DNA of 63,878 nucleotides. Origin: Patescibacteria group bacterium (GTDB taxonomy: Bacteria > Patescibacteriota > Minisyncoccia > Phycocordibacterales > Phycocordibacteraceae). The notes under the pieces are model-generated. The model saw only the letters and a program-made list of their open reading frames with translations. It did not search any database and had not been told where the DNA came from. Made by a program: the position numbers and the translations under genes. Within the stretch, counting starts at the first letter, position 1; each line of letters opens with the position of its first letter. Shown here piece by piece: positions 14,178 through 58,900 of this stretch. Location of the stretch: assembly GCA_040384725.1 (NCBI GenBank), contig JAZKIS010000010.1, positions 1-63,878 of the forward strand, in the 5' to 3' direction.

Positions 14178-14204
14178 GTATGGAAAGAGCGTAGGCACAG
14201 TATA

Positions 14205-26125: not shown

Positions 26126-26151
26126 GTATGAGCCGTCATGCTAAGGAGTAC

Positions 26152-26180
26152 TTGACAGACAATAACCAGTGTGGTAAACA
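26152..26180 (+). promoter_or_regulatory. Candidate extended -10 promoter for the CARDB gene
   Basis: TTGACA (26152-57), 17 nt, TGgTAAACA (-10 at 26175-80). The ATG at 26189 is 8 nt downstream. Confidence 0.4.
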
Positions 26181-39635: not shown

Positions 39636-39712
39636 AGCAATGAGGTTATGGGGATGCGCTTAAGTATGCCCCATTCTCATGAGCATCGTACTCCTTTATG
39701 CACACGTAAAAC

Positions 39713-41983
39713 CTAGAACTCCTGGAAATTCGGTATCACGTTCACCGTTGCGGTCTTCGGCTGGGCGTTGTCGCACGTGAGCGTATAGGTGCTCTGGGTG
39801 CTGATCGTTACCGTTGCAGATCCCGAGGCGCTGCACACCGGAACGGCGGAGACGGCTGACGACCAGGAGATTCCCGGTCCTGTTACGGTGCAGTCTGCAT
39901 TCTGGCCGTTCACGCCGGTTGCGCTCCACGTGACTGAAGAGGTCTGCCCGGTACGGACGCGCGCAGGCGTCGCGGTTATCGTGAGCGTCGGCGTACCTCC
40001 CGTGCACCACCCCGCTCCCACCGTTACGAGCGGGCACTGCGCAGGGGTTGCGGCATTCGTCGCCGTTACCTGCATGCCGTAGCTGCCGGTATCCGTGAAG
40101 GTGCGGGTCGCCGTGCTTTCAGAACCGAAGCCCGTCGCGCCGTCTGAACCGAGCCAGCCGTATGGCCATGTCGCGGCTGCTACAGGGCTTGCGGTATAAG
40201 TCACGCTCCCTCCGACGACCGCTGACTGCGTGTTGACGGAGCAGGAGACGCTCGAGCCCACCGGTGCTTCGCTTACTGATACGTCGGTCCACGGACCACA
40301 GTTGTTGCCTTCGTTCGATTCTGCAACGACGCCCGACCAGTCCGCACACAAGCGAACGCTATAGGTGCCCGCCGTCTGGAACGTGTAGCTGAAGCTTGTC
40401 GGAGCCGATCCGCTCGGAGGAATCGTCGAGACTGAAGGCGATGCCGTCGTTGACTGCTTCGACACGGGCGCGGTGAGCTGGAAGTAGCCCGTACTCGCTC
40501 CTGCTGCGGCTCCGCCGATATTCGTGATTGTGGCGGAGAGGGTCCTCGTCTGTCCTCGGGAGGCGGTGTTCGGCGTTATGGCGCCTGCCGTAAGGTCCGG
40601 CGCGGGCGTGCCGACGGTCAGATACTGCCAGCCGCTGCAGTTGTTCGCATAGTTGCTCTCGGTATGCACGTTCACCCAGCTCGTATTGTTGTTCGCGCAC
40701 ACCCGATAGAACTGCTGGCCCTGGGTCGATGGCGTGTAGGAAGCGGACACCTCTTGCCAGCCGCCGGACGCGAGCGAGCTCGCTGCGGTCGCCGCTATCG
40801 TCTGATTGACCGTCGTGCAGTTCGTGTCGCAGATCTGGATAAGGTTCGGGAAGTATCCGGCAGCACCGGCGCCTTCGTTCGCCACGCCGCCGTAGAGCGT
40901 AACCGGCTGGTTCGTGTTCGTCGCTGCGGCACCTCCCACCTGACCGACGAGGTCCGGGACCTGCGTGACCGTTACCGAAGCGGAGTCCGCATCGCTTGAT
41001 CCGGTCGAGCCGGTGGCCGAACACTGATAAATATCGGTCATGTATGGCGCTTGGTTTGCCGAATGGTCCCAATATCCATTCTTGCAGAGCGCGCCGCTCT
41101 GGGTACAGCTCGTGCCTGACGGGTTTCCTGGACTACAGGTTGTCATAGCTCCGTACGGAAGGTTCGGATGATTGTTCCCATACTGCTGACATACGCTGCT
41201 GTTTACATTGGAACAGGCGAGGTCACTCGTATCGGTCTCCTTATACCTCCAGGTGCCTGAGACCACGGGCGTGCCGTTATTACATATGAGCGAATACGAC
41301 GTCGTGTCTGTCGGATTCACGGTCGTACTGCCTGACATCTGGTTAGCCCAGTTGAAGCCGCTCGACGTACACGTCGTAGCACCGGTGACATTCCAGGAGA
41401 GAGTCGCGGCACCGCCAGAAGAGACCGTACCTGGATTCGAGGTGAGGGTTACCGATACGTCGCGCACCGTGACCGAAGCTGACGCCGTTGCCGATTGTGT
41501 CTGGCTCTGGCAGGTGTAGGTCGTCCTTGTGGTACGGCAGAAACCGGCGTCTGGATCGCGCAGGGTCGTGGTGCACGTAGCGTTCACCGTCGCACACCCT
41601 GTTCCTTCCTGTGCAGGACACGCACCTGACTGCGTGAGACCTGCCGTACAGGAGCCGCTGACATTGGTAGCTGTCGGGCCAGAGGTTCTTGCCCACAGCA
41701 GACTCTGCTTGGTACATACGACCGAATACGACGTATCGTCCGCGGGCGTTACGGTAACCGAGCCTGAGGTTGCCCCGCCCGTACTGAACCCTGTACCGGT
41801 ACATGTCGTGGCGTCACTCGAAGACCAGGTGAGGGTGACGCTCTCCCCTTGTCTCAGGTCGGTGCTGCTAGCCGTAAGCGTCGCTGCGGGCGCAGCGTTT
41901 ACATGCGTAACAATAAGAAAGGCGATGACTACCGCTATCGCTGTGGAGGCAGTGATTTTTGCAAGAAAAGTAGTGCGAGTCAT
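39713..41983 (-). CDS. Secreted Ig-like/CARDB multi-domain wall protein, paralog 2 (about 756 aa)
   Basis: Same module order as paralog 1. It ends ...TYTLTCDNAQPKTATVNVIPNFQEF. I prefer ATG 41983 (MTRTTFLAKITASTAIAVVIAFLIV...) over the tracked TTG 42034. Confidence 0.85.
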   Translation of the reverse strand: MTRTTFLAKITASTAIAVVIAFLIVTHVNAAPAATLTASSTDLRQGESVTLTWSSSDATTCTGTGFSTGGATSGSVTVTPADDTSYSVVCTKQSLLWARTSGPTATNVSGSCTAGLTQSGACPAQEGTGCATVNATCTTTLRDPDAGFCRTTRTTYTCQSQTQSATASASVTVRDVSVTLTSNPGTVSSGGAATLSWNVTGATTCTSSGFNWANQMSGSTTVNPTDTTSYSLICNNGTPVVSGTWRYKETDTSDLACSNVNSSVCQQYGNNHPNLPYGAMTTCSPGNPSGTSCTQSGALCKNGYWDHSANQAPYMTDIYQCSATGSTGSSDADSASVTVTQVPDLVGQVGGAAATNTNQPVTLYGGVANEGAGAAGYFPNLIQICDTNCTTVNQTIAATAASSLASGGWQEVSASYTPSTQGQQFYRVCANNNTSWVNVHTESNYANNCSGWQYLTVGTPAPDLTAGAITPNTASRGQTRTLSATITNIGGAAAGASTGYFQLTAPVSKQSTTASPSVSTIPPSGSAPTSFSYTFQTAGTYSVRLCADWSGVVAESNEGNNCGPWTDVSVSEAPVGSSVSCSVNTQSAVVGGSVTYTASPVAAATWPYGWLGSDGATGFGSESTATRTFTDTGSYGMQVTATNAATPAQCPLVTVGAGWCTGGTPTLTITATPARVRTGQTSSVTWSATGVNGQNADCTVTGPGISWSSAVSAVPVCSASGSATVTISTQSTYTLTCDNAQPKTATVNVIPNFQEF

Positions 41984-42074
41984 GGTAGTACGGTTATGAG
42001 TGGTGCAGGGCGTGATTCTGAAGACATACATCAAGTATATGCCCCAGCGCTTCTCGGCTTACGCGTCGTGGGGA

Positions 42075-44157: not shown

Positions 44158-45156
44158 CTAGCGGACGGCAGCGGCAACCTTCTCGAGACGCGCGAGGAAG
44201 GCATCACGGGCTGCGGGCACGTTCTCGTCCTCCCCTTTCCAGACCATGAGCGCCTCTTCCTGGAGCGCGCGCGCATAGCTGAAGGTAAGGGGCCACGGTG
44301 CCTTTCGTTCACGGGCGAGCTTCGTTATGGCTGCGAGGTTCGCGGTTGCCTGGTCCGGGGTCTGTCCGCCGGAAAGGAAGACGATACCCGCCACCTCGCG
44401 AGGCACGGTCTCCATGAGCGCGCCGAGCGTGTCTTCTGCAACTTCTTCAGGCGTGTCTTCCCGTCCGCTCTTATTCCCCGAGACCGCCATGGAGGTCTTT
44501 ATGATGATGCCGGAGAGGTCCGCGCACTGCTCGTTCAGCGTATCGAAGAGCACGCGCATCGCGGATTCGATAACCGCGCGCGCGCGGAGCCTGCTGTGTG
44601 CGCCGTCCAGGAGCACCTCAGGCTCAAGCATCGGCACCATGCCCGCTTTCTGCACCTCGCAGGCATAGGTCGCGAGCCGCTTCGCGTTCTCGACGAGCGC
44701 TCTTGCTGTCGGGAGACGGTCTCCCTCTATGGTTATGGCCGCGCGCCACTTCGTGAATCCGGTACCGTATGTCGCGTGAAAGTCGGTAAGGCGCTCCGGC
44801 AGGCCGAGCAGTCCTTTCGTTATGTTCTCGTTCGAGCTCTCTGCAAGCGGCTCGAGACCCTGATCGACCTTGATGCCTGGGAGTATCCCCTTGTCGCTCA
44901 GGAGCTTCGGAAACGGCACACCGTTATCTCCCTTCTGCGAGAGCGTCTCTTCATGGAGGATTACGCCCGTTAGATAGTGCTCTATGCCCGGCGTCGCGAG
45001 GAGCATGTCGCGGAATTTCCTACGCATCTCAGGACCGGTCTCGATCCCGAAGGCTACGAGGCGCTTCTCGTCCGCGCTCTTCTCGCTCTCGTCAGCGGCA
45101 AGGATTCCCTTGCCTGGAGCGACCAGGGCTCGCGCACTATCTGAAAGGTTCATCAT
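44158..45156 (-). CDS. fba: Fructose-bisphosphate aldolase, class I
   Basis: GKGILAADES, GIKVDQG, IIKTSMAV (Schiff-base Lys context) and VFLSGGQ. Confidence 0.9.
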   Translation of the reverse strand: MMNLSDSARALVAPGKGILAADESEKSADEKRLVAFGIETGPEMRRKFRDMLLATPGIEHYLTGVILHEETLSQKGDNGVPFPKLLSDKGILPGIKVDQGLEPLAESSNENITKGLLGLPERLTDFHATYGTGFTKWRAAITIEGDRLPTARALVENAKRLATYACEVQKAGMVPMLEPEVLLDGAHSRLRARAVIESAMRVLFDTLNEQCADLSGIIIKTSMAVSGNKSGREDTPEEVAEDTLGALMETVPREVAGIVFLSGGQTPDQATANLAAITKLARERKAPWPLTFSYARALQEEALMVWKGEDENVPAARDAFLARLEKVAAAVR

Positions 45157-45200
45157 GAAAAAAGTGTAGCATGCGCGTTCTCGTGGGGTAGAATATTCCT

Positions 45201-45455
45201 ATGAACATCGTCTTCGACGAAGAACAGCAGCTCGTGCGGGTACGGCAGACCAAGGTATCCGGCCTCTACGGTCTCATTATCCGTTGGGGATTCGCGAAAG
45301 ACCAGAGAAGCGCAGGCATGGTGCTCGCCATCGCGGCCGGATGCATGATCTTGCTTGCTCTAGGCATTGTGGTATTTGCTCCCGGGAACGGGGGTGACAT
45401 CTCACAGCAGGAATACCTGCGCAACGGAAACATAACCGCTCCGCCTCAGCCATGA
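45201..45455 (+). CDS. FDEE-motif small single-pass membrane protein, copy S1
   Basis: 84 aa: MNIVFDEEQQ...IRWGFAKDQRSAGMVLAIAAGCMILLALGIVVF...APPQP. Its stop overlaps the pilin ATG (ATGA). Paralogs are at 49057..49311 and 51559..51810. Confidence 0.7.
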   Translation: MNIVFDEEQQLVRVRQTKVSGLYGLIIRWGFAKDQRSAGMVLAIAAGCMILLALGIVVFAPGNGGDISQQEYLRNGNITAPPQP

Positions 45456-45931
45456 ATCGCGGATTCACCCTGATCGAGCTCCTCGTGGTTATCGCCATCA
45501 TTGGCATGCTCTCGTCGGTGGTGCTGGTGTCGCTCAGTACCGCGCGAGCGCGAGCGCGCGATGCAGAAGTAAGGATGGAGCTCGCACAGATCCGCACCGC
45601 CATACAGCTCTACTACACCCAAAACGGCTCCATGCCTCCGAACATTTACCCGACTAACTACTGCAGCAACCAGGCAAACTTCCTTCAGTCTCTGGTGACC
45701 GCCGGATACCTTCCCGCCAATATCACGGCTCCGAACAACTCGACTAACCCTTACTGCTATTACGATTACGGCTCTGGAGGCCTTCCGGGAGCCATTATCG
45801 TAGGCTGGCTCGAAGCGGCCACGCCGCCTTCTACTGCAGGATTCAGGGGGACGTGCCGGCCATGGACAGCAGGCGCGAACTGGTGCGACCAGGCCATCAA
45901 CGGGTACTACTGTCTCTGCTCTACGTACTAG
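45452..45931 (+). CDS. Type IV pilin-like protein P1 (prepilin N-terminal cleavage/methylation motif)
   Basis: MNRG|[20 protein letters not shown]... is a class III signal peptide with Glu5. Cys pairs occur in the C-terminal globular part. Confidence 0.9.
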   Translation: MNRGFTLIELLVVIAIIGMLSSVVLVSLSTARARARDAEVRMELAQIRTAIQLYYTQNGSMPPNIYPTNYCSNQANFLQSLVTAGYLPANITAPNNSTNPYCYYDYGSGGLPGAIIVGWLEAATPPSTAGFRGTCRPWTAGANWCDQAINGYYCLCSTY

Positions 45932-45953
45932 CGTACATGCTAAACTCTATGCC

Positions 45954-46949
45954 ATGAGCATAGATTTCCTCGCCATAGGCGACATCGTTACTGAACCGTT
46001 TATCCGCCTTACGGACGCCCACGTCGAGAACCTGAAAGATTCAGACGCAAAGCAGCTGTGCATGCGCTTCGGGGACAAGATCCCCTACGAATACGCAGTG
46101 CTCGCAGTTGCCGTTGGGAATGCGAGCAACGCCGCGGTTGCGGCGTCGAGACTCGGCCTTTCCTCGTCGCTGCGCGCGTATGTCGGCGACGACCGCTATG
46201 GCCCTGAGTGCATCGCGAAGCTCGTTGAGGAGAAGGTAGACACATCTCTCATGGTTACCGAGCCCGGCAAGGCCACGAACTACCATTACGTGCTCTGGTA
46301 CGGCAGCGAGCGCACCATCCTCGTGAAGCACGAAGAGTTCGCGTACACCGTGCCCGAGCTTTCGGAAAGCCCTAAGTGGCTCTACCTTTCCTCGCTCTCA
46401 GAGAACTCCCTTCCGTATCACGAAGCGATCCTCGAGCTTCTTAAAAAGCACCCCGATACGAAACTCGCCTTCCAGCCGGGCACGTTCCAGATGAAGCTCG
46501 GCAAGGAAGCCTTGAAAGGTCTCTACGAGCGGAGCACGCTCTTCTTTTGCAATAAGGAGGAAGCGCAGCGCATCCTCGATCTTCCTGAAGAGCATGACCT
46601 GGGTATCCTTCTCGAGAAGTTCGCCGCACTCGGCCCTAAGATCGTCGTGATCACGGACGGCCGCGAGGGCGCGTACGCGTACGACGGTGCACGGAAGATG
46701 CACGTACCGATGTATCCGGATTCACGGGAGCCGTTCGAGCGCACCGGCGCCGGCGATTCGTTCGCCTCTACGGTTACCGCAGCGCTCTCCCTCGGGAAGC
46801 CGCTCGAGGAAGCGCTTCTCTGGGGACCGATCAACTCCATGGCCGTGGTGCAGGAAGTCGGCGCACAGAAGGGGCTCCTGACGCTCGCACAGCTTGAGGA
46901 CTATCTTAAGAAAGCCCCTCCCGAATACGCCATTACGGACCTTCCGTAA
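45954..46949 (+). CDS. PfkB-family carbohydrate kinase (ribokinase/phosphofructokinase-like)
   Basis: N-terminal ...FLAIGDIV... and C-terminal ...TGAGDSFASTV... are the PfkB signatures. Confidence 0.87.
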   Translation: MSIDFLAIGDIVTEPFIRLTDAHVENLKDSDAKQLCMRFGDKIPYEYAVLAVAVGNASNAAVAASRLGLSSSLRAYVGDDRYGPECIAKLVEEKVDTSLMVTEPGKATNYHYVLWYGSERTILVKHEEFAYTVPELSESPKWLYLSSLSENSLPYHEAILELLKKHPDTKLAFQPGTFQMKLGKEALKGLYERSTLFFCNKEEAQRILDLPEEHDLGILLEKFAALGPKIVVITDGREGAYAYDGARKMHVPMYPDSREPFERTGAGDSFASTVTAALSLGKPLEEALLWGPINSMAVVQEVGAQKGLLTLAQLEDYLKKAPPEYAITDLP

Positions 46950-46951
46950 CG

Positions 46952-46981
46952 AAAAGCCCGCATCCTAGGATGCGGGCTTTT
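46952..46981. terminator. Bidirectional terminator between the convergent pfkB-like gene and the tkt operon
   Basis: AAAAGCCCGCATCC TA GGATGCGGGCTTTT. Confidence 0.7.
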
Positions 46982-47168
46982 CTGCTGCCGACTCTTCCTT
47001 ATGTTTCCCTTTCTCGAAGTCCGCATCCGCTGCAAAAGGGTTAAAAGGCGGCTCGTTATAGGCTGCGTTGGTTGAATTAATCGCGTCGACGATCAAGGCG
47101 ATCGCCCCTGCGGCGAGCAGTACGATAAGTGCGATCGCCGCATACGACGTTAACGTCTTCCCCTTCAT
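46965..47168 (-). CDS. Possible 67-aa single-pass membrane protein (last gene of the operon)
   Basis: ATG 47168: MKGKTLTSYAAIALIVLLAAGAIALIV.... It starts 7 nt after the tkt C-section stop. Its 3' end runs into the terminator hairpin. Confidence 0.4.
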   Translation of the reverse strand: MKGKTLTSYAAIALIVLLAAGAIALIVDAINSTNAAYNEPPFNPFAADADFEKGKHKEESAAEKPAS

Positions 47169-47175
47169 ATGAGTA

Positions 47176-48165
47176 CTAGTATATACCGAGTGACTTTCGT
47201 ACGGCAGCACTTATTCCCTGTGCGGAAAGCCCGTAATGCTTAAGGAGTTCCTCTGGTTCTCCCGACTGCCCGAATACGTCCCGCATGCCGAGCCTGGTTA
47301 CCGGAACCGGGTACCGTTCGCCGAGGAACTCGGCGATCGCGCTCCCGAAACCGCCGGCTGCCTGATGCTCTTCTATGGTAAGGACGCGGCCTGCGCGTCG
47401 TGCGGCCTCTTCCACCTTCTCTTCGTCGAGCGGCTTAACCGAAGGCACGTGCAGGACCGTAACCTCAATGCCGTCGACAGCGAGCATGCGCGCGGCGAGC
47501 AATGCCTCGTACGAAAGGGCGCCCGTCGCCATGAGGGCGACCCGAGGCTTCGCGCTCTCCCAGAGCACGAGCGCCTTCCCGATCTCGAACGGGGTGTCGG
47601 TGGTCGTGAAGACCGGTGTCGGCGCACGGCCGAAGCGAAGGTAGGTCGGCGTCTTCGCCGTTGCCGCCGCCATGGTCGCTTTCCTCGCCTCTTCCGCGTC
47701 TCCCGGAACAATCACGTTCATGCCTGGAAGCATGCGCATCATCCCGACGTCCTCGAGCATCTGATGCGTCGCGCCGTCAGGGCCTACCGACACTCCCGCA
47801 TGCATGCCGCACACCACTACCGGCTGCTGGTTGAGCGCTATGGTAGTGCGGATCTGCTCGTAGTTTCGCCCGGGACTGAACGCGGCATACGAAGCGATGA
47901 ACGGACGCTTGCCCACCGCTGCCATGCCCGCCGCTGCCGTCGCCATGTTCTGCTCCGCAACCCCCACCTCGATGAACCGCTCCGGGAACTCCTTCTCGAA
48001 CCATTCGGCGCGCGTACTCTCCTTGAGATCAGCGCACAACACCACGACGTTCGGGTCATTCCTCCCGGCCTCAACCGCGCCGAGACCGAAGCCGTCGCGC
48101 GTCGCCTTCTTCTCAATGTCCTTCGAGAAGATAGCGTCATTCAGCTGTGCGTTCTTGTTAAGCAT
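47176..48165 (-). CDS. tkt: Transketolase, C-terminal section (pyrimidine-binding + C-terminal domains)
   Basis: ...ATRDGFGLGAVEAG...FIEVGVAEQNM... It overlaps the N-terminal section gene by 8 nt. Confidence 0.92.
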   Translation of the reverse strand: MLNKNAQLNDAIFSKDIEKKATRDGFGLGAVEAGRNDPNVVVLCADLKESTRAEWFEKEFPERFIEVGVAEQNMATAAAGMAAVGKRPFIASYAAFSPGRNYEQIRTTIALNQQPVVVCGMHAGVSVGPDGATHQMLEDVGMMRMLPGMNVIVPGDAEEARKATMAAATAKTPTYLRFGRAPTPVFTTTDTPFEIGKALVLWESAKPRVALMATGALSYEALLAARMLAVDGIEVTVLHVPSVKPLDEEKVEEAARRAGRVLTIEEHQAAGGFGSAIAEFLGERYPVPVTRLGMRDVFGQSGEPEELLKHYGLSAQGISAAVRKSLGIY

Positions 48166-49045
48166 ATTCGTTCGGTACCCTTCCGGCCCCGTTCCGGAGC
48201 TCTTTCATGAAGCGGGCGGCCTCTTCCTTCGTAGGCGGCTTGCCGTGCCATTTGTAATCATATTCGATCTCAGGCACGCCCTTCCCGGGAATCGTATGAG
48301 CGATGATGAGGGTCGGCTTCTCGGGGATCGCTTTCGCATGATCTACCGCGTCGACGAAGGCTTCTATATTATGCCCGTCCACCTCCATGACGTGCCAGCC
48401 GAACGCTTCGTACTTTTCCTTAAGAGAGTTGAGCGGCATCACATCCTCGGTCATGCCATCTATCTGGATGTTGTTCCGATCCATAACGGCCGTGAGGTTC
48501 CCGAGCTCGTATTTGTTCGCGAACATAATCGCTTCCCACGTATTTCCTTCCTGCTGCTCGCCGTCCGACATCATCACGTAGGTACGGTTCTTCTTCCCGT
48601 CCATCTTAAGGGCGAGCGCTATGCCCGCCGCTTGCGAGAGCCCGCTCCCTAAAGGGCCTGAGGTTGTCTCGAGTCCGGGAAGGCGGTCCCGTTCCGGGTG
48701 CCCCTGAAGTCGTGAGCCGAACTTACGGAGCGTGAGGCATTCCTCTACGGGGAAATACCCTGCGTGCGCCATAGCCGAATACCGGACCGGCACGGTATGC
48801 CCGTTACTCAGAATCAATCGGTCCCGGTCTTCCCAATCCGGGTTCTTAGGATCGTGCTTCAGTATATGGAAGTAGAACGCAGCGAAGAGGTCGGCCATGC
48901 CGAGCGGCCCTGCGGTGTGTCCGCTTCCGGCCTGCACCAGCATGTCGAGTATCGTCTCACGGATCGCCTCCGCGTGCGTCTCGATCTTCTTGATCTCGGT
49001 GTCAGTGAGCGCCATTACGCTAACGATACCATGATGCTCTACCAC
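48158..49045 (-). CDS. tkt: Transketolase, N-terminal (TPP-binding) section
   Basis: ...GSGHTAGPLGMADL... and ...MSDGEQQEGNTWEA... are TPP-binding motifs. Confidence 0.92.
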   Translation of the reverse strand: MVEHHGIVSVMALTDTEIKKIETHAEAIRETILDMLVQAGSGHTAGPLGMADLFAAFYFHILKHDPKNPDWEDRDRLILSNGHTVPVRYSAMAHAGYFPVEECLTLRKFGSRLQGHPERDRLPGLETTSGPLGSGLSQAAGIALALKMDGKKNRTYVMMSDGEQQEGNTWEAIMFANKYELGNLTAVMDRNNIQIDGMTEDVMPLNSLKEKYEAFGWHVMEVDGHNIEAFVDAVDHAKAIPEKPTLIIAHTIPGKGVPEIEYDYKWHGKPPTKEEAARFMKELRNGAGRVPNEYA

Positions 49046-49056
49046 GTTACGAATGC

Positions 49057-49311
49057 TTACCGTGCAGAAGTCGTATCAAGGGGCCCCGCAATCGGAGGGA
49101 CCTCTGACGGGTTCGCTGCAGGAGGTCCTTTCGGCCAGAGAACGATCGTAAGGAGCACACAAAAGACCGCTATGCCGATGAGCACGTACTCCGCCTGCTT
49201 ATCCGTCGTGACGATCTTCGTGGAAAGCACGAGTCTCACTAGAAAAGGCTTCTTGGTAATTGCCGGGCGAGCAATGATGTCTGGCTCTTCGTCGAATGAG
49301 ATGGTTGCCAT
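49057..49311 (-). CDS. FDEE-motif small single-pass membrane protein, copy S2
   Basis: ATG 49311: MATISFDEEPDII...TTDKQAEYVLIGIAVFCVLLTIVLW.... 84 aa. It starts 5 nt after the stop of pilin P2. Confidence 0.65.
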   Translation of the reverse strand: MATISFDEEPDIIARPAITKKPFLVRLVLSTKIVTTDKQAEYVLIGIAVFCVLLTIVLWPKGPPAANPSEVPPIAGPLDTTSAR

Positions 49312-49316
49312 AGGTG

Positions 49317-49871
49317 CTATAAGGGTGATACTTCGATTATCTGATTTGAATACGAGCCGCCGAAGGCCGTACACCACGGCTGGCTCGCATTGAAATAGAG
49401 CCTGTGGTTACGTATGCCACATCGGTACCGATTATTGGGATCCTCGAGCTGTCCCGTCAGGTCATACTGCGCTACGTTCGTATCCCTCCCCACATTGCCA
49501 TACGTATATGAGTAGCAGTTATCGCCCCACGGCGGACATGCCGTGTTCACAGGGTCAACCGGGACCTGGGACATATAGGGTGCGAGCGCGGTCCTGAATA
49601 TAGCCCATGAGGCAGCATCATAGCTGTAGCGGTAACCGTTGCAGTCCCAACCGCAGTTCGAGGGCGGATAGTATCCGTAATCGAGAAAGTAGAGCTCAAG
49701 GGCCACGCGTATCTGTCCGAGCTGTGCCATGCGCGTCGCATCCCTCGATTTGATGCGGGCGCTGTTGAGTGAAGAGAGCACGACCGACGAGAGCATACCG
49801 ATGATCGCGATCACGACGAGGAGCTCGATGAGGGTAAAGCCGCGCTGTGTGCCTTTCTGTTTATTACCCAT
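49317..49871 (-). CDS. Type IV pilin-like protein P2
   Basis: ATG 49871: MGNKQKGTQRG|[20 protein letters not shown].... Its start overlaps the rpe-like stop by 8 nt. Confidence 0.9.
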   Translation of the reverse strand: MGNKQKGTQRGFTLIELLVVIAIIGMLSSVVLSSLNSARIKSRDATRMAQLGQIRVALELYFLDYGYYPPSNCGWDCNGYRYSYDAASWAIFRTALAPYMSQVPVDPVNTACPPWGDNCYSYTYGNVGRDTNVAQYDLTGQLEDPNNRYRCGIRNHRLYFNASQPWCTAFGGSYSNQIIEVSPL

Positions 49872-50586
49872 AAATGCCGTGCCGCTGCGTAAGTTCATCG
49901 AACTCACGATAGCGAGCGGCAATATCTGGCGCTTTCCAGAGCGCAGACCCAACCACGAGACGCTTCACGCCGGCCTCAAGGAGCTTCGGCGCGTTCTCAA
50001 GCGTCACGCCTCCGTCCACCTGTATCTCTATGGTCGGATAGCGTTTCTTGAACATCGCGATCTTCGCGAAGACCCGTACGTCGAACGGTTCTCCCTGGTG
50101 CCCGATCTTCCTGATGCCCATGAACTGCACGTAGTCGATCTTCTTCAGGTGCGGTTCGATGAGCGCGAGGTCAGTCTCGATACCGATAGAGAGCCCGAGC
50201 GACAGGAGCCCTGGCGTAAAGTCGGCGTCATGCCCGTACGTGCCGTAGGTACTCGACAGGAAACGCGGGATGAACCGCGTGCTCTCGCTATGCACCGTAA
50301 GTCTCGAGGCGCCGAGACCGATCCACGCGCCCGCTACCGATTCCGGATCGGCACTCATGAGATCGATCTCGAACCGGAAGTCCCCTGCTCGCGGAAGGAG
50401 CTCGCCCGCATTGAGCATGCGCGAAGGCTCGGCAGCATCGGTGATGTACGGCCAGCTTTTGGGCCCAGCGAACACGCCGTCCACGATATCTACCTGCACC
50501 TCTTCGCAGAGTCCGGAAAGCGTCGACAGCTTCTCCTCGAGATCCTGCCGTGACGTCGGGATTATAGCCGGAACGATTATGCCCAT
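49864..50586 (-). CDS. rpe: Divergent ribulose-phosphate 3-epimerase-like TIM-barrel protein
   Basis: ATG 50586: MGIIVPAII...VQVDIVDGVF...EIDLM...VQFMGI..GHQGEPF...IQVDGGV...LVVGSAL follows the Rpe strand-end pattern but is divergent. The upstream part of the tracked ORF overlaps rpiB. Confidence 0.7.
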   Translation of the reverse strand: MGIIVPAIIPTSRQDLEEKLSTLSGLCEEVQVDIVDGVFAGPKSWPYITDAAEPSRMLNAGELLPRAGDFRFEIDLMSADPESVAGAWIGLGASRLTVHSESTRFIPRFLSSTYGTYGHDADFTPGLLSLGLSIGIETDLALIEPHLKKIDYVQFMGIRKIGHQGEPFDVRVFAKIAMFKKRYPTIEIQVDGGVTLENAPKLLEAGVKRLVVGSALWKAPDIAARYREFDELTQRHGIYG

Positions 50587-50605
50587 GGTTCCAGTATACC
50601 GTCCC

Positions 50606-51094
50606 CTATCCAAGCTTCTTAATGCGGCGTTCGTGACGTTCTTCTGCGGTGAAGGGTGCTTCGAGGAAGATGCGGACAGCCTCTTTCGCATCGTCGTCGG
50701 CAAGGAAGCGGGCTGCGAGGGAGAGCACATTCGCGTCATTATGTTCGCGCGAAAGCCGGACGATATCGTAGCCATCGAGCGCTGGGGCGCCTGCGGCGTC
50801 AATCGCACCCGTCGCATGCGCCTGGCCGTAGTACAGGGCACAGCGTACGCCCTTGACGCGGTTTGCGGCGATCGCCTCTCCCTGCCCTGATCCTCCTATG
50901 ACGATGCCGAGCGTACCAGGAGTAGCGACGACCTTCTGTGCGCACGGAGTGACGTAATCAGGATAATCGTCATCGCCATCAAGGGTGGTGGCGCCGAGGT
51001 CTTCCACCTCGTGCATGAGCATATCGCGCACATATTCAATCAATGTCGCCTTGAGTAGGAATCCGGTATGGTCTGCGGCGATGAATACTTTCAT
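50606..51094 (-). CDS. rpiB: Ribose-5-phosphate isomerase B
   Basis: MKVFIAADHTGF... and ...GIVIGGSGQGEAIAANR... match the RpiB/LacAB family. Confidence 0.92.
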   Translation of the reverse strand: MKVFIAADHTGFLLKATLIEYVRDMLMHEVEDLGATTLDGDDDYPDYVTPCAQKVVATPGTLGIVIGGSGQGEAIAANRVKGVRCALYYGQAHATGAIDAAGAPALDGYDIVRLSREHNDANVLSLAARFLADDDAKEAVRIFLEAPFTAEERHERRIKKLG

Positions 51095-51097
51095 GGG

Positions 51098-51562
51098 TTA
51101 GGGGTTCGCGTAGCAGCCCGGCGAGGTCCAGCTCGCGCTCGTTTCTATATCTGACGAGGCCCCACTGCTGCCCATGCAGAAGTACCGTTGTTTACCGGGA
51201 AGATACGCCATGATTGCGAATCGATTCACGTTATCACCGTTTGTTCCCGTGTAGAGCGAGGGTCCGTTACTTACAATATTCGTACAAATTTGCCGGGCGG
51301 CCGTTGCTTGATTGCCTGAAAAGCTGTTGTTGCATTCGGCAGCAGTGTAGTCCCATCCATACGCAAACGTCGCGAAGCTTCCGGTCTGGGAAAACTCAAA
51401 CTGAGCTGCTGTTGCAAGCTGCCTAACCGCGGCCTTAATGGCAGTGTCACGTGCCTTGAGGCGGGCTGCACTGAGACCTGCTACCACGACCGACGACAGG
51501 ACGCCGATGATGGCAATCACGACGAGGAGCTCGATAAGGGTAAAGCCGCGAGTTGTGGTCAT
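51098..51562 (-). CDS. Type IV pilin-like protein P3
   Basis: MTTTRG|[20 protein letters not shown].... Its stop lies 3 nt before the rpiB ATG. Confidence 0.9.
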
Positions 51563-51810
51563 GGTTGTATAATTGGCGTTGATTGCTCAAGACGCATGCG
51601 TTCGTCCGCATTCAGGGTCGTATCTCCCCTGCTGGAAAAGAGCAGGAAGAATGAGAGGATTACTGCGGCCACGGCAATCCCGACCAATATATAGTTCGCA
51701 TTCTTCTCGTCTTTCGCAAACTTATTGCGCACCATCCATCCGGCCATGCCCTGCTTCCCGGGCGCGGGCGTATAGCCTACTGAGGGTTCTTCGTTGAAGG
51801 ATACTTCCAT
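51559..51810 (-). CDS. FDEE-motif small single-pass membrane protein, copy S3
   Basis: 83 aa: [10 protein letters not shown]...[32 protein letters not shown]...PIIQP. It overlaps the P3 pilin start in an ATGA junction and starts 9 nt after the gap stop. Confidence 0.7.
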
Positions 51811-51819
51811 AAGAGATGA

Positions 51820-52830
51820 TTAGAGGGCTCCTGCCTTTAGTACGTGACGAACCAGGGTCGCGGTGTACCCTGCCTCGTTATCATACCAAGCAAGAACCTT
51901 TACTAAAGTGCCGTCAACAACACGCGTCATCCCGAGGTCCGCGATCGAGGCGAACCGTTGGCCGATGATGTCGCTCGAGACGTACTCCTCGTCTGACGCC
52001 TGGAACAGTCCCTGCCAGCGCGGCTGCTGTGCAGCCATGCGAAGAATGTCATTTACTTCCTCAGCCGTTGTCGGGCGCTTCGCGATGAAGGTGATGTCGG
52101 CAATCGATCCCGCGGGTACGGGAACGCGCAGCGAGATGCCGTCGAACTTGCCCAGGAGCGACGGGTACGCCTTCGTCACCGCAACCGCGGCCCCCGTTGA
52201 GGTTGGCACGATATTCTGGGCTGCTGCCCTCCCTTCTTTCATGTCCTTCTTCGAGGGGCCGTCGACGATCGCCTGCGATGCGGTGTATGCGTGGGTCGTT
52301 GAGAGCACCGCCTTCTCGATACCGATCGCCTCGTCAAGGATCGCGATCACCGGAGACGCCGAGTTCGTCGTGCACGACGCGTTACTCGTGATGGCGCAGG
52401 TTCCGAGCTTCGACTCGTCGAGCCCCATGAGCACCGTCGCGCCGAGCGGGTTCTCGTCTTTGACCGGACCCGTGATGACCACGCGCTTCGCGCCCGCAAG
52501 GATGTGCGCATTCGCCTTCTCATAATCCGTAAAGAAGCCGGTTGCTTCGACTACGACATCGATCGCGAGATCCTTCCATGGAAGCAGTGTGGGATCTTTC
52601 TCGGAGAGGAATGTCACTTCCTTTTCGTTAATGGAGAGCGCTCCTTCCTTCCACGCGACGGGAAACGGCGCACGGCCGTACACGGTATCGAACTGCAGCA
52701 GGTACGCGAGGTTCTCGCTCGAACCGAGATCATTCACGGCGACGAGCTCGATATCCGGATTATCCCAGGTCTGTCGTACAAACGCCCTTCCTATCCTGCC
52801 GAACCCGTTGATCGCTATCCTAGTCGCCAT
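51820..52830 (-). CDS. gap: Glyceraldehyde-3-phosphate dehydrogenase
   Basis: INGFGRIGR is the NAD-binding motif. SNASCTTNS carries the catalytic Cys. Confidence 0.95.
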   Translation of the reverse strand: MATRIAINGFGRIGRAFVRQTWDNPDIELVAVNDLGSSENLAYLLQFDTVYGRAPFPVAWKEGALSINEKEVTFLSEKDPTLLPWKDLAIDVVVEATGFFTDYEKANAHILAGAKRVVITGPVKDENPLGATVLMGLDESKLGTCAITSNASCTTNSASPVIAILDEAIGIEKAVLSTTHAYTASQAIVDGPSKKDMKEGRAAAQNIVPTSTGAAVAVTKAYPSLLGKFDGISLRVPVPAGSIADITFIAKRPTTAEEVNDILRMAAQQPRWQGLFQASDEEYVSSDIIGQRFASIADLGMTRVVDGTLVKVLAWYDNEAGYTATLVRHVLKAGAL

Positions 52831-52908: not shown

Positions 52909-55900
52909 CTACGAGGTAGGTTCTGGCGCCGGAGCCGGGGCAATCGGCTCAGGTTCAGGGGTAGGTTCAGGCTCGGGGGTCGGTTCTGGCGCTGGCTCAG
53001 GAGTTGGTTCAGGGGTCGGTTCTGGTGTCGGCTCTTCGGTAGGCGGCTCGATCGGATCCGTTGGAGACTCAGGAGTTGGTTCAGGGGTCGGTTCTGGCTC
53101 AGGAGTTGGTTCTGGTTGCGGTTGCGAGAGGTCTATAACCGTACACTCCCCTTCGCGGATATTCTGCTGGCCGTTTCGCATCGAGAGGCAGTACGGCTCA
53201 CCGGTTACCTCGTCATAGAAGGTTATGCCGGTCGGCTTCTCGGCGCTTCCGATCGTAAGACGCTCTGCAATGAGGTCCACCGCGGACAGGAGGCCGTTGC
53301 GGATGCTGAACTTGTCAATAATCTCGAACATGCCCTCAGCCATCGGCATGCCGGTCGGCGCGCTCGCTGCGAGCTCGAGCTCCGCGAGTCGGGTCTCGAT
53401 AGTCGCGAGGCGCTCGAATACGAGGTCAGTACGCTCAGAGATCATCTGCATGCCTGTTATGGCGTAGCTCGCCATCTTATAGAGGTCCGCGCTTCCGTTG
53501 GTAAGGACCTCGTTCGGAAGCTCTTCGTCGAAGCTCACGAGATAGAGGTTCGCAGAGACCGTCCCCGTCTCTACGCTTGCTGATGCGAGGTCTCCTATAA
53601 AGATGCCTGATTCAGAGACCGTGAGGGTGCCGGCAATGGTTGCATCAGAAGATACTTGAAGTGCGTACATCGCAGTATTCTCCGCCGCCGGCGCAATAGA
53701 GAGCGTACGCACATTGAGCTCGTTCACGCCTTCAACGAGGTACGGTATGAAGTCGAGGTACGAGACGCCGAGGTATCCCCTTTCAGCATCAACGATCTTC
53801 GCTGAGTTCGGGAGCACGGCCTGTACGTCCTGTGCGAGGAATCCAACCTCAGGACGGTTGCTGCCGATCATGTTGTACGTCTTTCCGTTAATTGCGGAGA
53901 GTACGGAGAACGGGTTCTCAATATCCTGGATATTCTCCTTGAGGCGGCGGTCTGAGACGTCGGTTATGGAGCCGGTGTACTCGATATCGCCGGTTACGTC
54001 GAGGGCGACGGATGGCGCGGTGTTATTGATACCAACATTTCCGCTCTCAAGGACGCTGAACACTTCGACGCCTCCTGTCTCGAAGAGATTGAGGATGTCC
54101 GTGGCACCGGTGGACTGGACAGCGAACCTCGAGCTGGTGGTGCTTGTGCCTACGCCGGTGTTCGTGCCGGAGAAATAGGTATTGCCAGCCGAGACCTGCA
54201 GATACGAATTGGTATTGTTCCATTGGATATAGGCGCGCTGCGCATCTGCCTGCCTGAAGCTCAGGTACGGGTTTCCAGTGGAATGCGAGTCAATCTTGAG
54301 TAGTGTATCCGCCGCCGAATAGAGGTGGAGCAACGCATTCGGAGTGGTAGTGCCGATACCGACGTTGCCCGAGTGGTATGCCGTTCCATCGGTCGCGAAC
54401 ACGTGCCTAACAGCCGTACCTCCCGAGGCGGCAATCACGAAACTTGAAAGAGAACCTCCTTGGGCTCCTGTTGGAGACCACACGAGCTGGCCGGTATGGC
54501 CCGAGAATCCTGTCATGGAGTTTGTGATAAGCGTTCCCCATGCACCAACGGCACTTCTACCGAGCTGCAACTGCTCCGATCCCCAAACATCGAGAGGCTT
54601 GTTAGGCGTTGTGGTGGCGATACCGACGTAGCCTGCCTCAGTTATAAGCATACGGGTGTTGAGCGTTCCGTTCTCGGCAGTTATGAATGCCAGGTTGCCA
54701 TCGTCTCCGGACGTACCCCTGCCTCCGGAGATGCGCGCAACGGAGTTGTGGTTGTAGTTCGATTCATAGAAGTCTATATGCGCAACCGCGCCGCCTGCAT
54801 TGTTGTTCGAACCGGAAAGCGTAAGCGTGGACTGTGCAAGACCTGCTGTAGCGACATGGAGAAGGCTCAGTGGCGTGGTGGTACCGATACCGACGTAGCC
54901 TGCATTGGTTATTCTCATCGCCTCTATCTGACCCGTGTTTGCCTTGTATACATCGAACGCGAGGCCGGTTCCTACAGGACCTGACGCCTCCGTCGTTGCA
55001 TACATTCCTCCCAGAGTAGTGGTAGTGACCTGGCTCGTTATTATCGGGTTCCTTGTTCCTATAGAGCCGAGAGGATTGTTCACCGAAAGAATCGTATTCG
55101 GTGCTGAGTTGCCGATACCGACGTTGCCACTGGTACTGACGCGGACTTTCTCAGCACCGTCAGCGAATAGTGCTAGCGCGCTTCCTGGGTCTCCGCCGAA
55201 GTATCCGACACCTGACGCGAGGTAGCCGGCACGGAGGATGTAGTTCGTATTATCGGTAAGCGTAAGCGCGTTCGCGCCAGCCGCTGCGGTGCGTGAAGAG
55301 ATGCCGTTCGCGCTTGTTGAGACGACCTGGAGCGCATAGGAGGGGTTTGTAATGCCGATACCGACGTTGCCGGAGGAAAGGATAGTCATGCTTTCAACAG
55401 GAGTGTTAGCCACGGCGTAGGTAAAGAAACTGAGTCGGCTAGTGTTTCCCGTTGCCACTTCCATGACCGTACCGATTCGCGCGCGCGGCCCACGAAGCCC
55501 GACATCCTCACTACCGAACGTAATTGCCGTGTTTGGATTTACCATGTCCCACGTGCCGCCACTTGTAGTGTCGTAGATATAGATACCGTCTCCCGTTGCT
55601 GTACCTCCAGAGATAGCGTTCGACGCGAACGCTATGGATAGCTTTCGATCTGCTGTCGTCGTGCCGATACCCACGTTCCCTCCCGTGGTAGCAAGATAAG
55701 TAGCGCCAGTCGTCGTGATCTGGGTGGTCGAGGCGTTTCCGGTAACGGTGAGGAGAGAGCCGTCGAAGGTGAGGTTAGCCTCGTCAACGAGCGCTGAGGT
55801 TCCGTTGCCTGTGATCAGGCGGTTGTTGGTGAAGGTTGAGGCACCGGTACCGCCGTCTGCCACAGGCACGTCCGTACCGCCCGCGCGGTACACGAGGTTG

Positions 55901-58900
55901 CCTTCGATGTTGAGGTTCCCTGCGCTTGCGCGTGCGAGCGTGGTATCGGAGGCCGCACCGAGCTCTATGGTTCCCGTAGTGAACGTATTCGAGGTTCCGA
56001 GCGAGAACGAGACATTCGAGGTTAGGAGTCCCGTGGAGTGCGTGATAGTAGCATTACCGTTGTTGAAGTTAAGGACGCCGCCTGACGCGAGGAAGAGGTC
56101 GGCCCACATGAGCGTTCCGGTGCCGAGCGCGTTTCCGTCGCTAGTGATAGGAGAGAGCGCAGTACCCGTGAGTGACACCTCGCCCGTGCTGTTAACCGCG
56201 AAGCCAAGCGTGCTTGCCGCCGGGAGGTACACGCCGTTAGTAGGAACGGTCGAACTGGTCGGGATGAAGGAGTTTGCGGTCAGCGGCACGTTCGACGTGA
56301 GCGCGCCTGCGGAATGCGTGAGCGTAGCGTTGCCGTTGTTGAAGTTAAGGACGCCGCCTGACGCGAGGAAGAGGTCAGCCCAGCTCTGGGTTGCGCTGCC
56401 GAGCGCAGCGACATCGTTCGTGAGAGGAAGCAGCGCTCCACCGAAGGTCTGAGCCTGGCTCCAGGAGTTCGCGGTTGTAGTGCCGAAGGCGAGAGAAATA
56501 ACACTTCCGGATACCTGTACCGGATAGGTTCCAGTGTAGGTTGTACCGCCGCCAGTGATACAGGTAGTGCCGTCGGTGCTGAAGCACGATGCGCGAACGG
56601 GGCCGGTGAAGGTTGAGGTTGCGGTTGAAGTTGCAGTAATAGTGCCGGCGAAGTAACCGCTACCGTTTACAGTGAGGAGTGCATGCGGAGAGGTGGTGCC
56701 GATACCGACGTTGCCGTTAAGCAAAGTCTGCGTGACGCTCGTATTACCTATCACAACCTGGTTACTAGCTGTGGTGTACGCTCCGTTACCGATTGCCGTT
56801 GAGTTAGATGCTGAGACGAGCTGAGAAGGGTTGTTACCCGCGCTGTATCCGATGAATGTGTTCAGGGTTCCCGTGGTAACACTAAAGCCAGCTTGTCCTC
56901 CAAGCGCTGTGTTCTGATATCCTGAGGTAACACTGAAGAGTGCGGTATCTCCCACGCCGGTGTTGTAGTAATTAGACGTCTGCGCTGAGTAGCCGGCACG
57001 GTATCCGACGAATACGTTGTTTGTTCCTGTGGTAAGGGTTGTACCTGCCTCCCGGCCTATGAATACGTTACTGCTTCCTTGCGTAACCGCGAATCCGCTC
57101 AGCGTGCCGAAGAAAGCATTACTGTCGCCAGACGTGATGCTGTACCCAGAGCGATATCCGACCATGGTGTTGTTGTTCATAGACGTACCGAACATGGCGG
57201 TTTCGTTTCCGATTACGATGTTCTGCACGCCCGTGATCGGCGTAACGAAGGAGCCGCCTGAGTGGAACCCGATAAAGATGTTGTCGTTCACGGTGTTAGC
57301 GGCACCCGCATCAACGCCGAGATTGGTGTTGTAGTTCCCCGTCTGGTTAGCGAAACCAGACTGGTACCCAATGTTCGTATTAGTTGTTCCAGTAGTGTTT
57401 GAATACCCAGCAGCATATCCAAGGTCGGTACGCGCATATCCGGTGGTGTTATTCTGTCCGGCGCCAGAACCAATGAAAGTGTTCTGTCGGCCCTGCGTCG
57501 TGCCGAGCGGAGTGTTTGCCAGTCCGGCATTCTTTCCGATGAACACGTTGGTCGAGAAGTCCGAATGTATGCGAAGAAGTTCCGCACCTAGGGTATCGTT
57601 TAGCTTAATAAATGTTGTCGTTGTCGCGCCTTGCAGAGTAAGGAGCGAAGTAGGCGTCGTCGTGCCGATACCCACGTTCCCTCCCGTGGTAGCAAGATAA
57701 GTAGCGCCAGTCGTCGTGATCTGGGTGGTCGAGGCGTTTCCGGTAACGGTGAGGAGAGAGCCGTCGAAGGTGAGGTTAGCCTCGTCAACGAGCGCTGAGG
57801 TTCCGTTGCCTGTGATCAGGCGGTTGTTGGTGAAGGTTGAGGCACCGGTACCGCCATACGTAACTGCAACCGCGGTTCCCTGCCATACACCCGTTCCAAT
57901 GGTGCCAACCGATGTGAGGGAGGAACCGGTAACACCAGAGCCGAGCGTGCTGCCGCTGAGCACGGAGGTGCCTGCAATCTGATACGAGTCGCCGCTCGCA
58001 AGATCAAGACCCGTTAGTCCGAAGTCTGCACCGAGGACGCCAGAGTACTTGATCTCGAGAGTGTCGTCTTCGGCGTCGAGAATGATACCCGACGTGGTTT
58101 GTGTCTCAATTCTGAGGTTCGCGCCATCGAAGAAGATACCGGCATCCGTACCTGCGCCAAGTGTAATGGCGCCTGCGGCATTGTATGCCGAACCGTCCAC
58201 GTCGATGATGAAGCGGCCGCCAGTGGTGATGTTTGCGATGCCAGTGTCGACGGCACCACCATTCCAAGTACCAGAGGTGATGGTGCCGACGGTATCGATA
58301 TCAGAGCCAACGAGCTTGCTTGCCGCGATGGAGCCCGCGAGCATGCCGTTGGTAACCTTGAGGGCGCCGATGGTTGTCGTAATAGCGGTAGTGCCAGAGC
58401 CCGTGACGTCGCCCGAGAGCGTGATGGTCTGGTTGCCGGTTAGATAGTCGGTACCCGCAACCGCCGGAATAACCGAGCCTGATGCATTGGTCTTGAGGAG
58501 CGAGGACGTCACGCCAGAGATCGCGAAGTTCGTGGTGGTTGCGTTCGTCGCAACGAGGCTGCCGAAGGTCTGGGTGCCGGCCCAGGTGTTTGAGGTTGTT
58601 GTGCCGAAGGCGAGGCTTATGGCGCTTCCTGATACAACAACGGGATACGTTCCGGTGTAGGTGGTGCCGCTTGTGAGACAGACACCTCCAACTGCGAAGC
58701 AGCCGGAAGAGATGCTGTATCCGCCGACACCGCTCTTCGTGGTGGTGGCGTTGTTGAAGAAGTTAGTTCCGGTTCCGGTTCCCCCAATCGAGAGGAGGGA
58801 TCCAGGGGTTGAAGTGCCGATACCGACGTTACCTGCCGCAAAGACGGTATGTCCGCTTCCTGACGACTGAGGATTTATAGAGAGGTTAGTACCATCGTAT

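Follow-up and report, generated by a model that had tools for sequence, protein, structure and literature searches.

FDEE proteins: a family of small bitopic membrane proteins encoded next to type IV pilin genes in Paceibacteria

Three small membrane proteins beside three type IV prepilins

Contig JAZKIS010000010.1 of a Patescibacteria group bacterium (assembly GCA_040384725.1), whose 63,878 nucleotides were analysed as a whole and are referred to here as the window, encodes three small proteins, S1, S2 and S3, each lying directly against a gene for a type IV prepilin, respectively P1, P2 and P3 (Table 1). S1 begins MNIVFDEE, has its transmembrane (TM) segment at about residues 41-59 and ends its tail in PPQP; S2 begins MATISFDEE and carries the tail WPKGPPAANPSEVPP; S3 begins MEVSFNEE, and its tail has a motif of the ERxRLExSTP type that recurs in many homologs. 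We refer to these proteins and their relatives as the FDEE family. The mechanically called open reading frame (ORF) of S2 extends to a GTG at 49377, and the alignment of the family favours MATISFDEE as the N-terminus. Read in the sequence, the stop of S1 overlaps the start of P1 in an ATGA (...cagccATGAatcgc), as does the stop of S3 the start of P3 (...caaccATGAccaca), and S2 starts 5 nt after the stop of P2 (TAGcacctATG). The frames upstream of P2 were checked and hold no S gene, and no in-frame read-through from an S gene into a pilin gene exists.

The mutual identity of S1-S3 is about 30%; their local alignments reach z = 6.1, 11.4 and 15.3, with 0 of 2000 shuffles attaining the score, and the relatedness persists in the first 40 residues, outside the TM segment (z 4.5-10.7). 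By these alignment statistics S1-S3 are significantly related paralogs. P1, P2 and P3 match the N_methyl domain (PF07963) above the Pfam gathering score and have short, basic prepilin leaders (MNRG/F, MGNKQKGTQRG/F and MTTTRG/F, respectively, with the slash at the cleavage site). No further S-like ORF or pilin is found in the 63.9-kb window. The initial annotation of this DNA had proposed the three small genes at these positions, their adjacency to pilins, the two ATGA overlaps, the 5-nt spacing of S2 and the kinship of the three proteins, and the ORFs, the junctions and the alignments agree with it on each count. It had also described the pilins as nearly invariant at the N-terminus and unrelated in their globular parts. 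The former holds, since past the cleavage G P1-P3 share a near-identical stretch of the FTLIELL type; the latter goes too far, since P1 and P2 are detectably related in their globular parts (z 8.6) and P1 and P3 weakly so (z 4.4), leaving P2 and P3 as the pair with no such relationship. Recent gene conversion among the 5' ends of P1-P3 is unsupported, the longest run identical in all three being 14 nt.

Table 1. Positions of the S and pilin genes and of other features mentioned in the text, numbered within the window or within the related locus named (E values of S1-S3 are against the 131-sequence family profile)
Feature	Sequence	Positions	Strand	Evidence or remark
S1, 84-aa FDEE-family bitopic membrane protein	window	45201..45455	+	ORF, family profile E 8e-22
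S2, 84-aa (from ATG) FDEE-family protein	window	49057..49311	-	ORF, family profile E 1e-25
S3, 83-aa FDEE-family protein	window	51559..51810	-	ORF, family profile E 4e-25
P1, type IV prepilin	window	45452..45931	+	PF07963 E 4.3e-8
P2, type IV prepilin	window	49317..49871	-	PF07963 E 5e-9, weak T2SSG
P3, type IV prepilin	window	51098..51562	-	PF07963 E 1.3e-7
Conserved glycolysis/pentose-phosphate block	window	44158-52830		also loci L001-L040
Single-TM ORF after transketolase-C	window	46965-47168	-
Single-TM ORF after transketolase-C	L001	10908-11078
Single-TM ORF after transketolase-C	L003	8545-8715
Single-TM ORF after transketolase-C	L005	8146-8361
Split transketolase genes	window	47176-49045	-	8-nt overlap
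TAGAAT	window	45189-45194		6 nt before S1 ATG
Giant 3592-aa ORF	window	52909-63687	-	upstream of GAPDH
NusB-NUDIX fusion ORF	window	13284-14198	-
Sortase gene and CARDB-domain protein	window	25345-26962
Two large CARDB/PKD surface proteins	window	37614-42034
Non-homologous 81-aa bitopic ORF	L003	4910-5155		overlaps pilin start by ATGA
S-P with divergent S	L036	7876-8741		between ribosomal proteins L5 and S8
Operon with PilC, pilins and PilD-type peptidase	L038	1-4226	-
S-P pair after RecG	L038	6609-7439	+

The FDEE family: distribution and conservation

Of 1.84 billion cluster representatives, 1035 matched a profile of S1-S3 at E<=1e-3; the best 150 of the 1035 are 60-110 aa long, nearly all match from residue 1, and the sequences of the matches show the same architecture as S1-S3. 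A single-sequence homolog search with S3 found S3 itself and nothing else. A second search with an alignment of 131 sequences yielded 155 proteins, and the best 120 of these have no Pfam domain; among the matches listed, the source names are all 'hypothetical protein' with the exception of one 'predicted secreted protein'. The named sources among those listed are Paceibacterota, Parcubacteria, Minisyncoccia/Minisyncoccota, Yonathbacteria and 'Patescibacteria group', to which the genome loci with an S gene add Kaiserbacteria and some metagenome-assembled genomes auto-labelled Saccharibacteria. Scans of the 131 members with Pfam and NCBIfam returned TM-segment noise only (for instance DUF3098, PsbN, SecG and SecY); at E<=1, S1 and S2 matched no Pfam family and S3 nothing beyond TM noise. 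The PDB sequence search of the family found nothing meaningful, no relatives were found on viral contigs, and the literature search found no description of the family, with a coverage that is incomplete, so that an earlier mention elsewhere is possible. Thus, as judged from these searches, the FDEE family is a large and unannotated one, restricted to Paceibacteria, ultra-small bacteria that belong to the candidate phyla radiation (CPR). The initial annotation had called for homologs outside the contig and looked to CPR bacteria for them: such homologs exist in the numbers given above, and their named sources are all Paceibacteria-type CPR.

The signature and the conservation of the family were computed from 287 sequences. 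At the N-terminus these read M1, [ATS]2, [DN]3, [VI]4, [QS]5, F6 (97%), x7, E8 (89%) and E9 (80%), the F of the motif being at residue 5-7 in 245 of the 287 members. Next come about 12 variable residues, a segment that is basic and amphipathic ([SP]-x-[LF]-[VI]-R-L-V-[LI]-x-T-G) and the entry into the TM helix, [IL]-[VA]-K-[TD]-[ED]-[KR]-Q-A40 (99%)-[ENQ]-Y-V-L44 (95%)-[LI]-G46 (74%)-[IV]-A48 (71%). We accordingly define the family by M-x-[DN]-[VI]-x-F-x-E-E at residues 1-9, by G-[IL]-[AV]-K-[DT]-E-[KR]-x-A-[ENQ]-Y-V-L-[LI]-G-[IV]-A leading into one TM helix, and by a gene that adjoins one for a major-type type IV pilin; S1, S2 and S3 all conform to this definition in profile scores and pilin adjacency. 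The lengths are 80-93 aa (5th-95th percentile). The external tail of about 25 residues is constant in length and contains 15% Pro, its last residue is R, P or Q in 72% of the members, and subfamilies have recurrent tail motifs (ERxRLExSTP, DIQRIxQLQQ and WPKGRPAANPSEVP). The information content reaches 3-4 bits at the N-terminal and TM-start positions and drops to less than 1-2 bits at the C-terminal ones, which also have low occupancy. Between orthologous S pairs, the ratio of nonsynonymous to synonymous substitution rates (dN/dS) is 0.03-0.22, and 0.03-0.08 in the unsaturated pairs (0.15 for S1 and its 62% identical ortholog in the related locus L005), from which S genes appear to be translated and under purifying selection.

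S1-S3 have one hydrophobic stretch each, at about residues 40-59, with more lysines and arginines on its N-terminal side. This charge excess favours an orientation with the N-terminus in the cytoplasm and the C-terminus outside (N-in/C-out), which is also that of prepilins; the one hydrophobic stretch agrees with the single-TM architecture first put forward for these proteins. An AlphaFold2 model of S1, made with the family alignment (predicted local distance difference test score, pLDDT, 80) has an extended coil at residues 1-21 and helices at 22-29, 35-59 and 69-76, and the conserved small residues 40/44/48/51/55 fall on one face of the TM helix; a Foldseek search of this model against the PDB gave 0 matches. 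FDEE proteins are predicted to have some 40 residues in the cytoplasm, with the acidic motif at their very N-terminus and a juxtamembrane helix that is basic and amphipathic, and to continue with one TM helix and a Pro-rich external tail.

Linkage of S genes to pilin genes

We scanned 41 sequences, namely the window and 40 fetched loci, with a hidden Markov model of the family and the pilin motif. For 42 of the 49 unique S genes the pilin motif lies 7-123 nt downstream on the same strand, and for four more (S2 of the window, its counterparts in L005 and L014, and one gene in L003) a pilin lies only directly upstream; in the further loci that were looked up, the pilin is directly downstream of S in four out of four. 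The linkage to N_methyl pilins that had been anticipated from the window alone thus extends to the homologs. Counted from the stop of S to the closest pilin ATG, the spacing at the 41 junctions with the order S-then-P is -4 (ATGA) in nine cases and +1 to +6 in 24, the gap being 10 nt or less in 36 of them, and no Shine-Dalgarno-like motif is visible before the pilin ATG. The terminal Arg codon of S as a source of the pilin Shine-Dalgarno was considered and rejected: the codons are CGA, CGT, CGC or AGA, and there is no GGAGG-like motif. The reverse order, P-then-S, recurs in the orthologous subgroup of S2 in L005, L014 and L044, and a metagenome scan seeded with S1-like sequences turned up S-P, P-S and P-S-S-P arrangements. 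In L003, a non-homologous 81-aa bitopic ORF (MEPAADKDEIIKRLH...) occupies the usual position of the FDEE gene, overlapping the pilin start by ATGA, and the pilin so overlapped is then followed by a canonical FDEE protein.

In Paceibacteria, the pairs are frequently housed in a conserved block of glycolysis and pentose-phosphate genes, GAPDH, RpiB, Rpe, TktN, TktC, small ORF, PfkB(-), FBA, L25 and SLT, within which the number and position of the S-P cassettes differ between genomes: slots are observed between GAPDH and RpiB, RpiB and Rpe, Rpe and TktN, PfkB and FBA, and FBA and L25. Outside the block, S-P cassettes lie after DnaJ and before TyrRS; after RecG; next to NusA, as S-P-P-P-S-P-P or P-S-P; between OmdA and MsrB-MsrA; divergent from DnaE; and, in the low-G+C Paceibacterota genome of L036, between ribosomal proteins L5 and S8. 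The L036 S is a divergent version in which the juxtamembrane and TM core is retained and the N-terminal F-x-E-E is missing. As a rule, the cassettes point the same way as the housekeeping genes and are packed against them, and they are also found inside DnaK/DnaJ, RecG, NusA and ribosomal-protein operons. Thus, the linkage of S and pilin is independent of synteny, being seen in at least seven unrelated neighbourhoods, and the block is a recurrent landing site for S-pilin cassettes. The varied slots in housekeeping operons suggest that these pilin paralogs hitch-hike on constitutive housekeeping transcription.

All S-linked pilins have a major-type N-terminus, and the minor-pilin-like genes with divergent N-termini have no S. 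L038, the one locus to show minor pilins and a pilin among machinery genes, has an operon that runs from PilC (T2SSF) through a major-type pilin and an A24 peptidase of the PilD type to three more genes with the pilin motif, two of which encode clearly divergent minor-type N-termini; the S-P pair of this locus is about 2.4 kb off, after RecG, on the opposite strand. Hence, S accompanies major-type pilin paralogs that are scattered among housekeeping operons. The divergence of S is correlated with that of the pilin (Mantel r 0.47), and in most of the orthologous pairs compared the globular domain of the pilin diverges no faster than S.

Gene neighbourhood in the window

In the window, a co-directional array on the minus strand runs from the gene for a giant 3592-aa protein, probably of the cell surface, through GAPDH, S3, P3, RpiB, ribulose-phosphate 3-epimerase, P2, S2, transketolase-N and transketolase-C to a small TM ORF, with each junction, as read in the sequence, an overlap or a gap of at most 11 nt. 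S3 starts 9 nt after the GAPDH stop, RpiB follows P3 by 3 nt, the P2 start overlaps the epimerase stop, and 11 nt separate the end of S2 from transketolase-N. On the plus strand, S1-P1-PfkB, with 22 nt between P1 and the PfkB kinase gene, diverges from the gene for a class I fructose-bisphosphate aldolase. The 44-nt divergent spacer between the aldolase gene and S1 contains, 6 nt ahead of the ATG of S1, a TAGAAT that went uncalled in the consensus promoter scan; promoter and terminator scans of 44-53 kb stayed at background level. The S1-P1-PfkB transcript may be leaderless.

Neither genes for the pilus machinery (PilB, C, D, M, N, O or T) nor a cognate prepilin peptidase or assembly machinery are found in the 63.9-kb window, whose remaining genes are of the housekeeping kind (TrmD, RNase R, SMC, RNase III, DnaE, GyrB, PheST, EF-Ts, ribosomal S2, RF and L25). 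Certain other features deserve mention. The giant ORF has long internal repeats and a C-terminus rich in Pro, Glu and Thr; because its counterparts in relatives match Peptidase_S74 and Bact_surface_Ig-like, it is probably a huge surface fibre or adhesin. The single-TM ORF at the end of the array (56-71 aa, MKGKTLTSYAAIALIVLL...) is conserved directly 3' of transketolase-C in the window and in relatives, has no Pfam match and is unrelated to the FDEE family. The transketolase itself is split into overlapping N- and C-terminal genes, and an ORF elsewhere in the window fuses NusB to NUDIX. A sortase gene adjoins that of a CARDB-domain protein, and two large CARDB/PKD surface proteins are encoded further along; these genes are likely to be a second, pilus-independent set of cell-surface proteins.

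Functional interpretation

We consider it very highly probable that S is a real, conserved, Paceibacteria-restricted family of membrane proteins whose genes are physically and translationally coupled to those of major-type prepilin paralogs. Because S almost always lies directly against a type IV pilin gene, it is probably an unrecognised helper of pilins. What kind of helper can be said more tentatively: we favour, with a rough probability of 0.45, a pilin-dedicated bitopic accessory protein, i.e., a chaperone or escort, by analogy with such proteins in other pilus systems, and infer the following plausible mechanism of its action. S would be made beside its pilin from the same mRNA and would insert N-in/C-out, as the prepilin does. 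Its TM helix might then pack against the near-invariant alpha1-N helix of the pilin and stabilise or orient the membrane pool of pilin, and its N-terminal acidic peptide might contact a cytoplasmic element, be it the basic leader of the prepilin, the peptidase that processes it or a part of the motor or platform of the pilus. The pilin would thereby be processed or handed to a single shared pilus machine. The best-conserved parts of S are the start of the TM helix with its small-residue face and the motif pinned at the extreme N-terminus, and the only part common to all S-linked pilins is the alpha1-N helix with the leader region.

Several observations weigh against a chaperone or escort. The remaining three of the 49 unique S genes have no adjacent pilin (one of them being a truncated ORF); the 42 DNA loci beyond the first six were sampled with S2-like and S1-like queries, and a single bacterial class supplies most of the DNA loci examined. 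There are S genes that stand at the head of several pilins, as in the S-P-P-P-S-P-P array next to NusA; two S copies share 96% identity, with pilins behind them that share only 27%; the pilin of the L038 machinery operon, a single example and the only machinery-linked pilin seen, has no S; and the external tail is the least conserved part of the protein overall. Because of the L038 pilin, S seems not to be needed by every major-type pilin. The 96%/27% pair argues that S is not tuned one-to-one to the globular domain and, together with the S genes that head several pilins, makes a strictly cognate one-to-one chaperone unlikely. Thus, of the dedicated small partner for each pilin proposed in the initial annotation, the conserved linkage stands, whereas a strict one S per pilin does not, in view of these arrays, and the order can also be P-then-S.

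The coupled junctions could also mean that S is a regulatory leader ORF, or a monitoring substrate of the MifM or SecM type, whose translation and membrane insertion gate re-initiation at the pilin start, with the peptide mattering as a sensor only: in 42 of the 49 cases S is upstream, its stop overlapping the pilin start or lying at most 6 nt from it, with no Shine-Dalgarno to be seen; its tail of about 25 residues is constant, Pro-rich (15%) and closed by R, P or Q in 72%; and the 81-aa bitopic ORF of L003, which is not homologous to it, takes the same overlapping position. We nevertheless hold this to be unlikely. Conservation is highest at the N-terminus and the TM start and lowest in the tail, the opposite of known arrest peptides, and the arrest-peptide model is down-weighted because the C-terminus is least conserved; moreover, purifying selection acts along the whole length of S, and the N-terminal motif fixed at residues 3-9 would have no role in such a model. 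The P-then-S pairs, present in several lineages, and the S genes heading several pilins are more easily understood if S is a protein partner than if it is a regulatory ORF that acts from upstream only. A position within the pilus machine itself is the other doubtful possibility of similar standing: S might be a component or adaptor akin to PilN, TcpR, BfpC or GspL, whose peptide recruits PilM or the assembly ATPase, with the multiple copies deciding which alternative major pilin is polymerised. PilN binds PilM by a short N-terminal peptide on a bitopic N-in protein, and S likewise has a short conserved peptide at a fixed distance from Met1 of a bitopic N-in protein and goes with major-type paralogs away from the machinery operon. 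Some Paceibacteria genomes being annotated with pilBCDMT only, without pilN or pilO, also counts for such an adaptor (PMC9763046). Against it, most S genes in the loci examined are not next to PilB/C/M/T/D (even in L038 the S-P pair is on the other strand and removed from the operon), genomes have several divergent S copies, S has no external globular domain such as that of PilN, and its acidic motif is unlike the INLLP of PilN, with no Pfam PilN match.

Two further explanations deny S a part in pilin handling or make it a pilin. As a pilus-unrelated membrane protein, S would merely travel with pilins because the two genes form a cassette that moves or duplicates and lands in highly expressed housekeeping operons; related genomes do differ in how many cassettes they have in the same block and where, the correlated divergence of S and pilin (Mantel r 0.47) is what co-inherited units would be expected to show, and a few S genes are without a pilin neighbour. 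However, S and pilin stay adjacent with next to no spacing in at least seven neighbourhoods and among S pairs with as little as about 30% identity, the junction is tight in both gene orders, nothing was noted in the surroundings of the window's cassettes that would mark a transposase, an integrase or repeats, and no viral copies were found, which together make a mere passenger quite improbable. It is far less probable still that S is a filament subunit, i.e., a prepilin, Flp/Tad-like or otherwise non-canonical, whose long leader is cut off ahead of the hydrophobic segment. Here one could point to the roughly 45 residues after the conserved A-E-Y, similar to mature Flp pilins, to the 'EY' pair at the start of the hydrophobic helix and to two weak Flp1_like matches among the 131 members (E 0.012). 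The candidate cleavage glycine, G32, is however 77% conserved, with K in 18%, and sits 8 residues, not 4, before E41-Y42; there is no F/M at +1, no E at +5 and no match to PF04964 (Flp_Fap) or PF07963; and a leader that is discarded would not have its very N-terminus as the best-conserved stretch of the protein. The spacing of the motif and the conservation of the glycine lead us to reject a prepilin or Flp-like identity of S.

A more speculative version of the adaptor idea, to which we likewise give little weight, is that FDEE proteins are a Paceibacteria-specific class of pilin-selecting adaptors, each licensing one 'orphan' alternative major pilin, whose gene lies among housekeeping operons and apart from the machinery, for processing and for loading onto the shared machine by docking via the N-terminal acidic peptide. 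If true, they might stand in for PilN and PilO, the alignment proteins that these genomes have no annotation for, and S would determine which adhesive pilus an ultra-small episymbiont displays.

Significance and comparison with known systems

Type IV pili are the best-supported organelles of host attachment and DNA uptake in CPR/Patescibacteria, and Paceibacteria have many divergent major-type pilin paralogs. FDEE proteins, which are absent from Pfam, NCBIfam and the canonical parts list of the type IV pilus, offer a testable handle on the insertion, stabilisation, processing or choice of these pilins. In practical terms, the family profile would annotate about 1000 'hypothetical proteins' and flag pilin loci in fragmentary metagenome assemblies.

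Among known proteins, the counterpart closest in build is TraQ, a 94-aa bitopic N-in inner-membrane chaperone of the F-propilin TraA, which binds the membrane segment of the pilin transiently for its correct insertion and stability (PMC7555446). S (83-84 aa, one TM helix) is likewise a small bitopic membrane protein, in all likelihood N-in, that would be dedicated to a pilin. However, TraQ serves the F-pilin of a conjugative (type IV secretion) system, whereas S goes with type IV pilins with their class III signal peptides; an N-terminal FDEE motif and translational coupling to the pilin gene, both features of S, are absent from TraQ; and TraQ is absent from the 25 families most matched by the 131 members. 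A second parallel is provided by the TfpX/TfpY/TfpZ (FimB-like) proteins of Pseudomonadota, membrane proteins whose genes share a cassette with an allele of a major type IV pilin: optimal assembly of the pilus requires TfpY, which seems to interact with this pilin yet goes undetected in the fibre, and which can cross-complement between pilins (PMC11841053). These are proteins of 170-245 aa with three N-terminal TM helices and a periplasmic beta-rich globular domain, and their genes lie downstream of pilA, behind an attenuating terminator (PMC11841053). S, in contrast, has about 85 aa, one TM helix and no globular domain, its gene is usually upstream of and coupled to that of the pilin, and it is restricted to Paceibacteria; no homology to TfpX/Y/Z was detected. 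Hence, S may be functionally analogous to TraQ of the F plasmid or to TfpY of Pseudomonas, the partner of PilA, being homologous to neither.

The likeness to other systems is of a more limited kind. PilN, as well as TcpR, BfpC and GspL, shares with S the bitopic N-in build and a short conserved peptide at the extreme N-terminus as a docking element, putative in the case of S. PilN is a single-copy protein encoded with pilM and pilO and has a periplasmic part made up of a coiled coil and a ferredoxin-like domain along with an INLLP-type motif. S differs in being multi-copy and pilin-linked, in having an acidic F-x-E-E motif and, with its tail of about 25 residues, no external domain, in its want of any Pfam match to PilN, and in that neither pilM nor pilO is among its annotated neighbours. 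MifM, SecM and VemP resemble S as small upstream ORFs for membrane-targeted peptides tightly joined to a downstream gene; the genes that they control, however, are those of insertases or translocases, and they have a conserved arrest sequence at the C-terminus. In the conservation profile of S no such motif appears at that end, where conservation is lowest, and the S gene can also be downstream of the linked gene. The G/XXXXEY motif and the Flp_Fap family that define Flp/Tad pilins are not found in S, weak Flp1_like matches turning up in just 2 of the 131 members.

In conclusion, accessory proteins and chaperones of pilins are already known kinds, and the FDEE family is a new, non-homologous one that goes with the type IV pilins of CPR bacteria. 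Such a third non-homologous pilin-dedicated accessory protein, after TraQ and TfpX/Y/Z, would suggest that the chaperoning of pilins in the membrane is a recurrent need.

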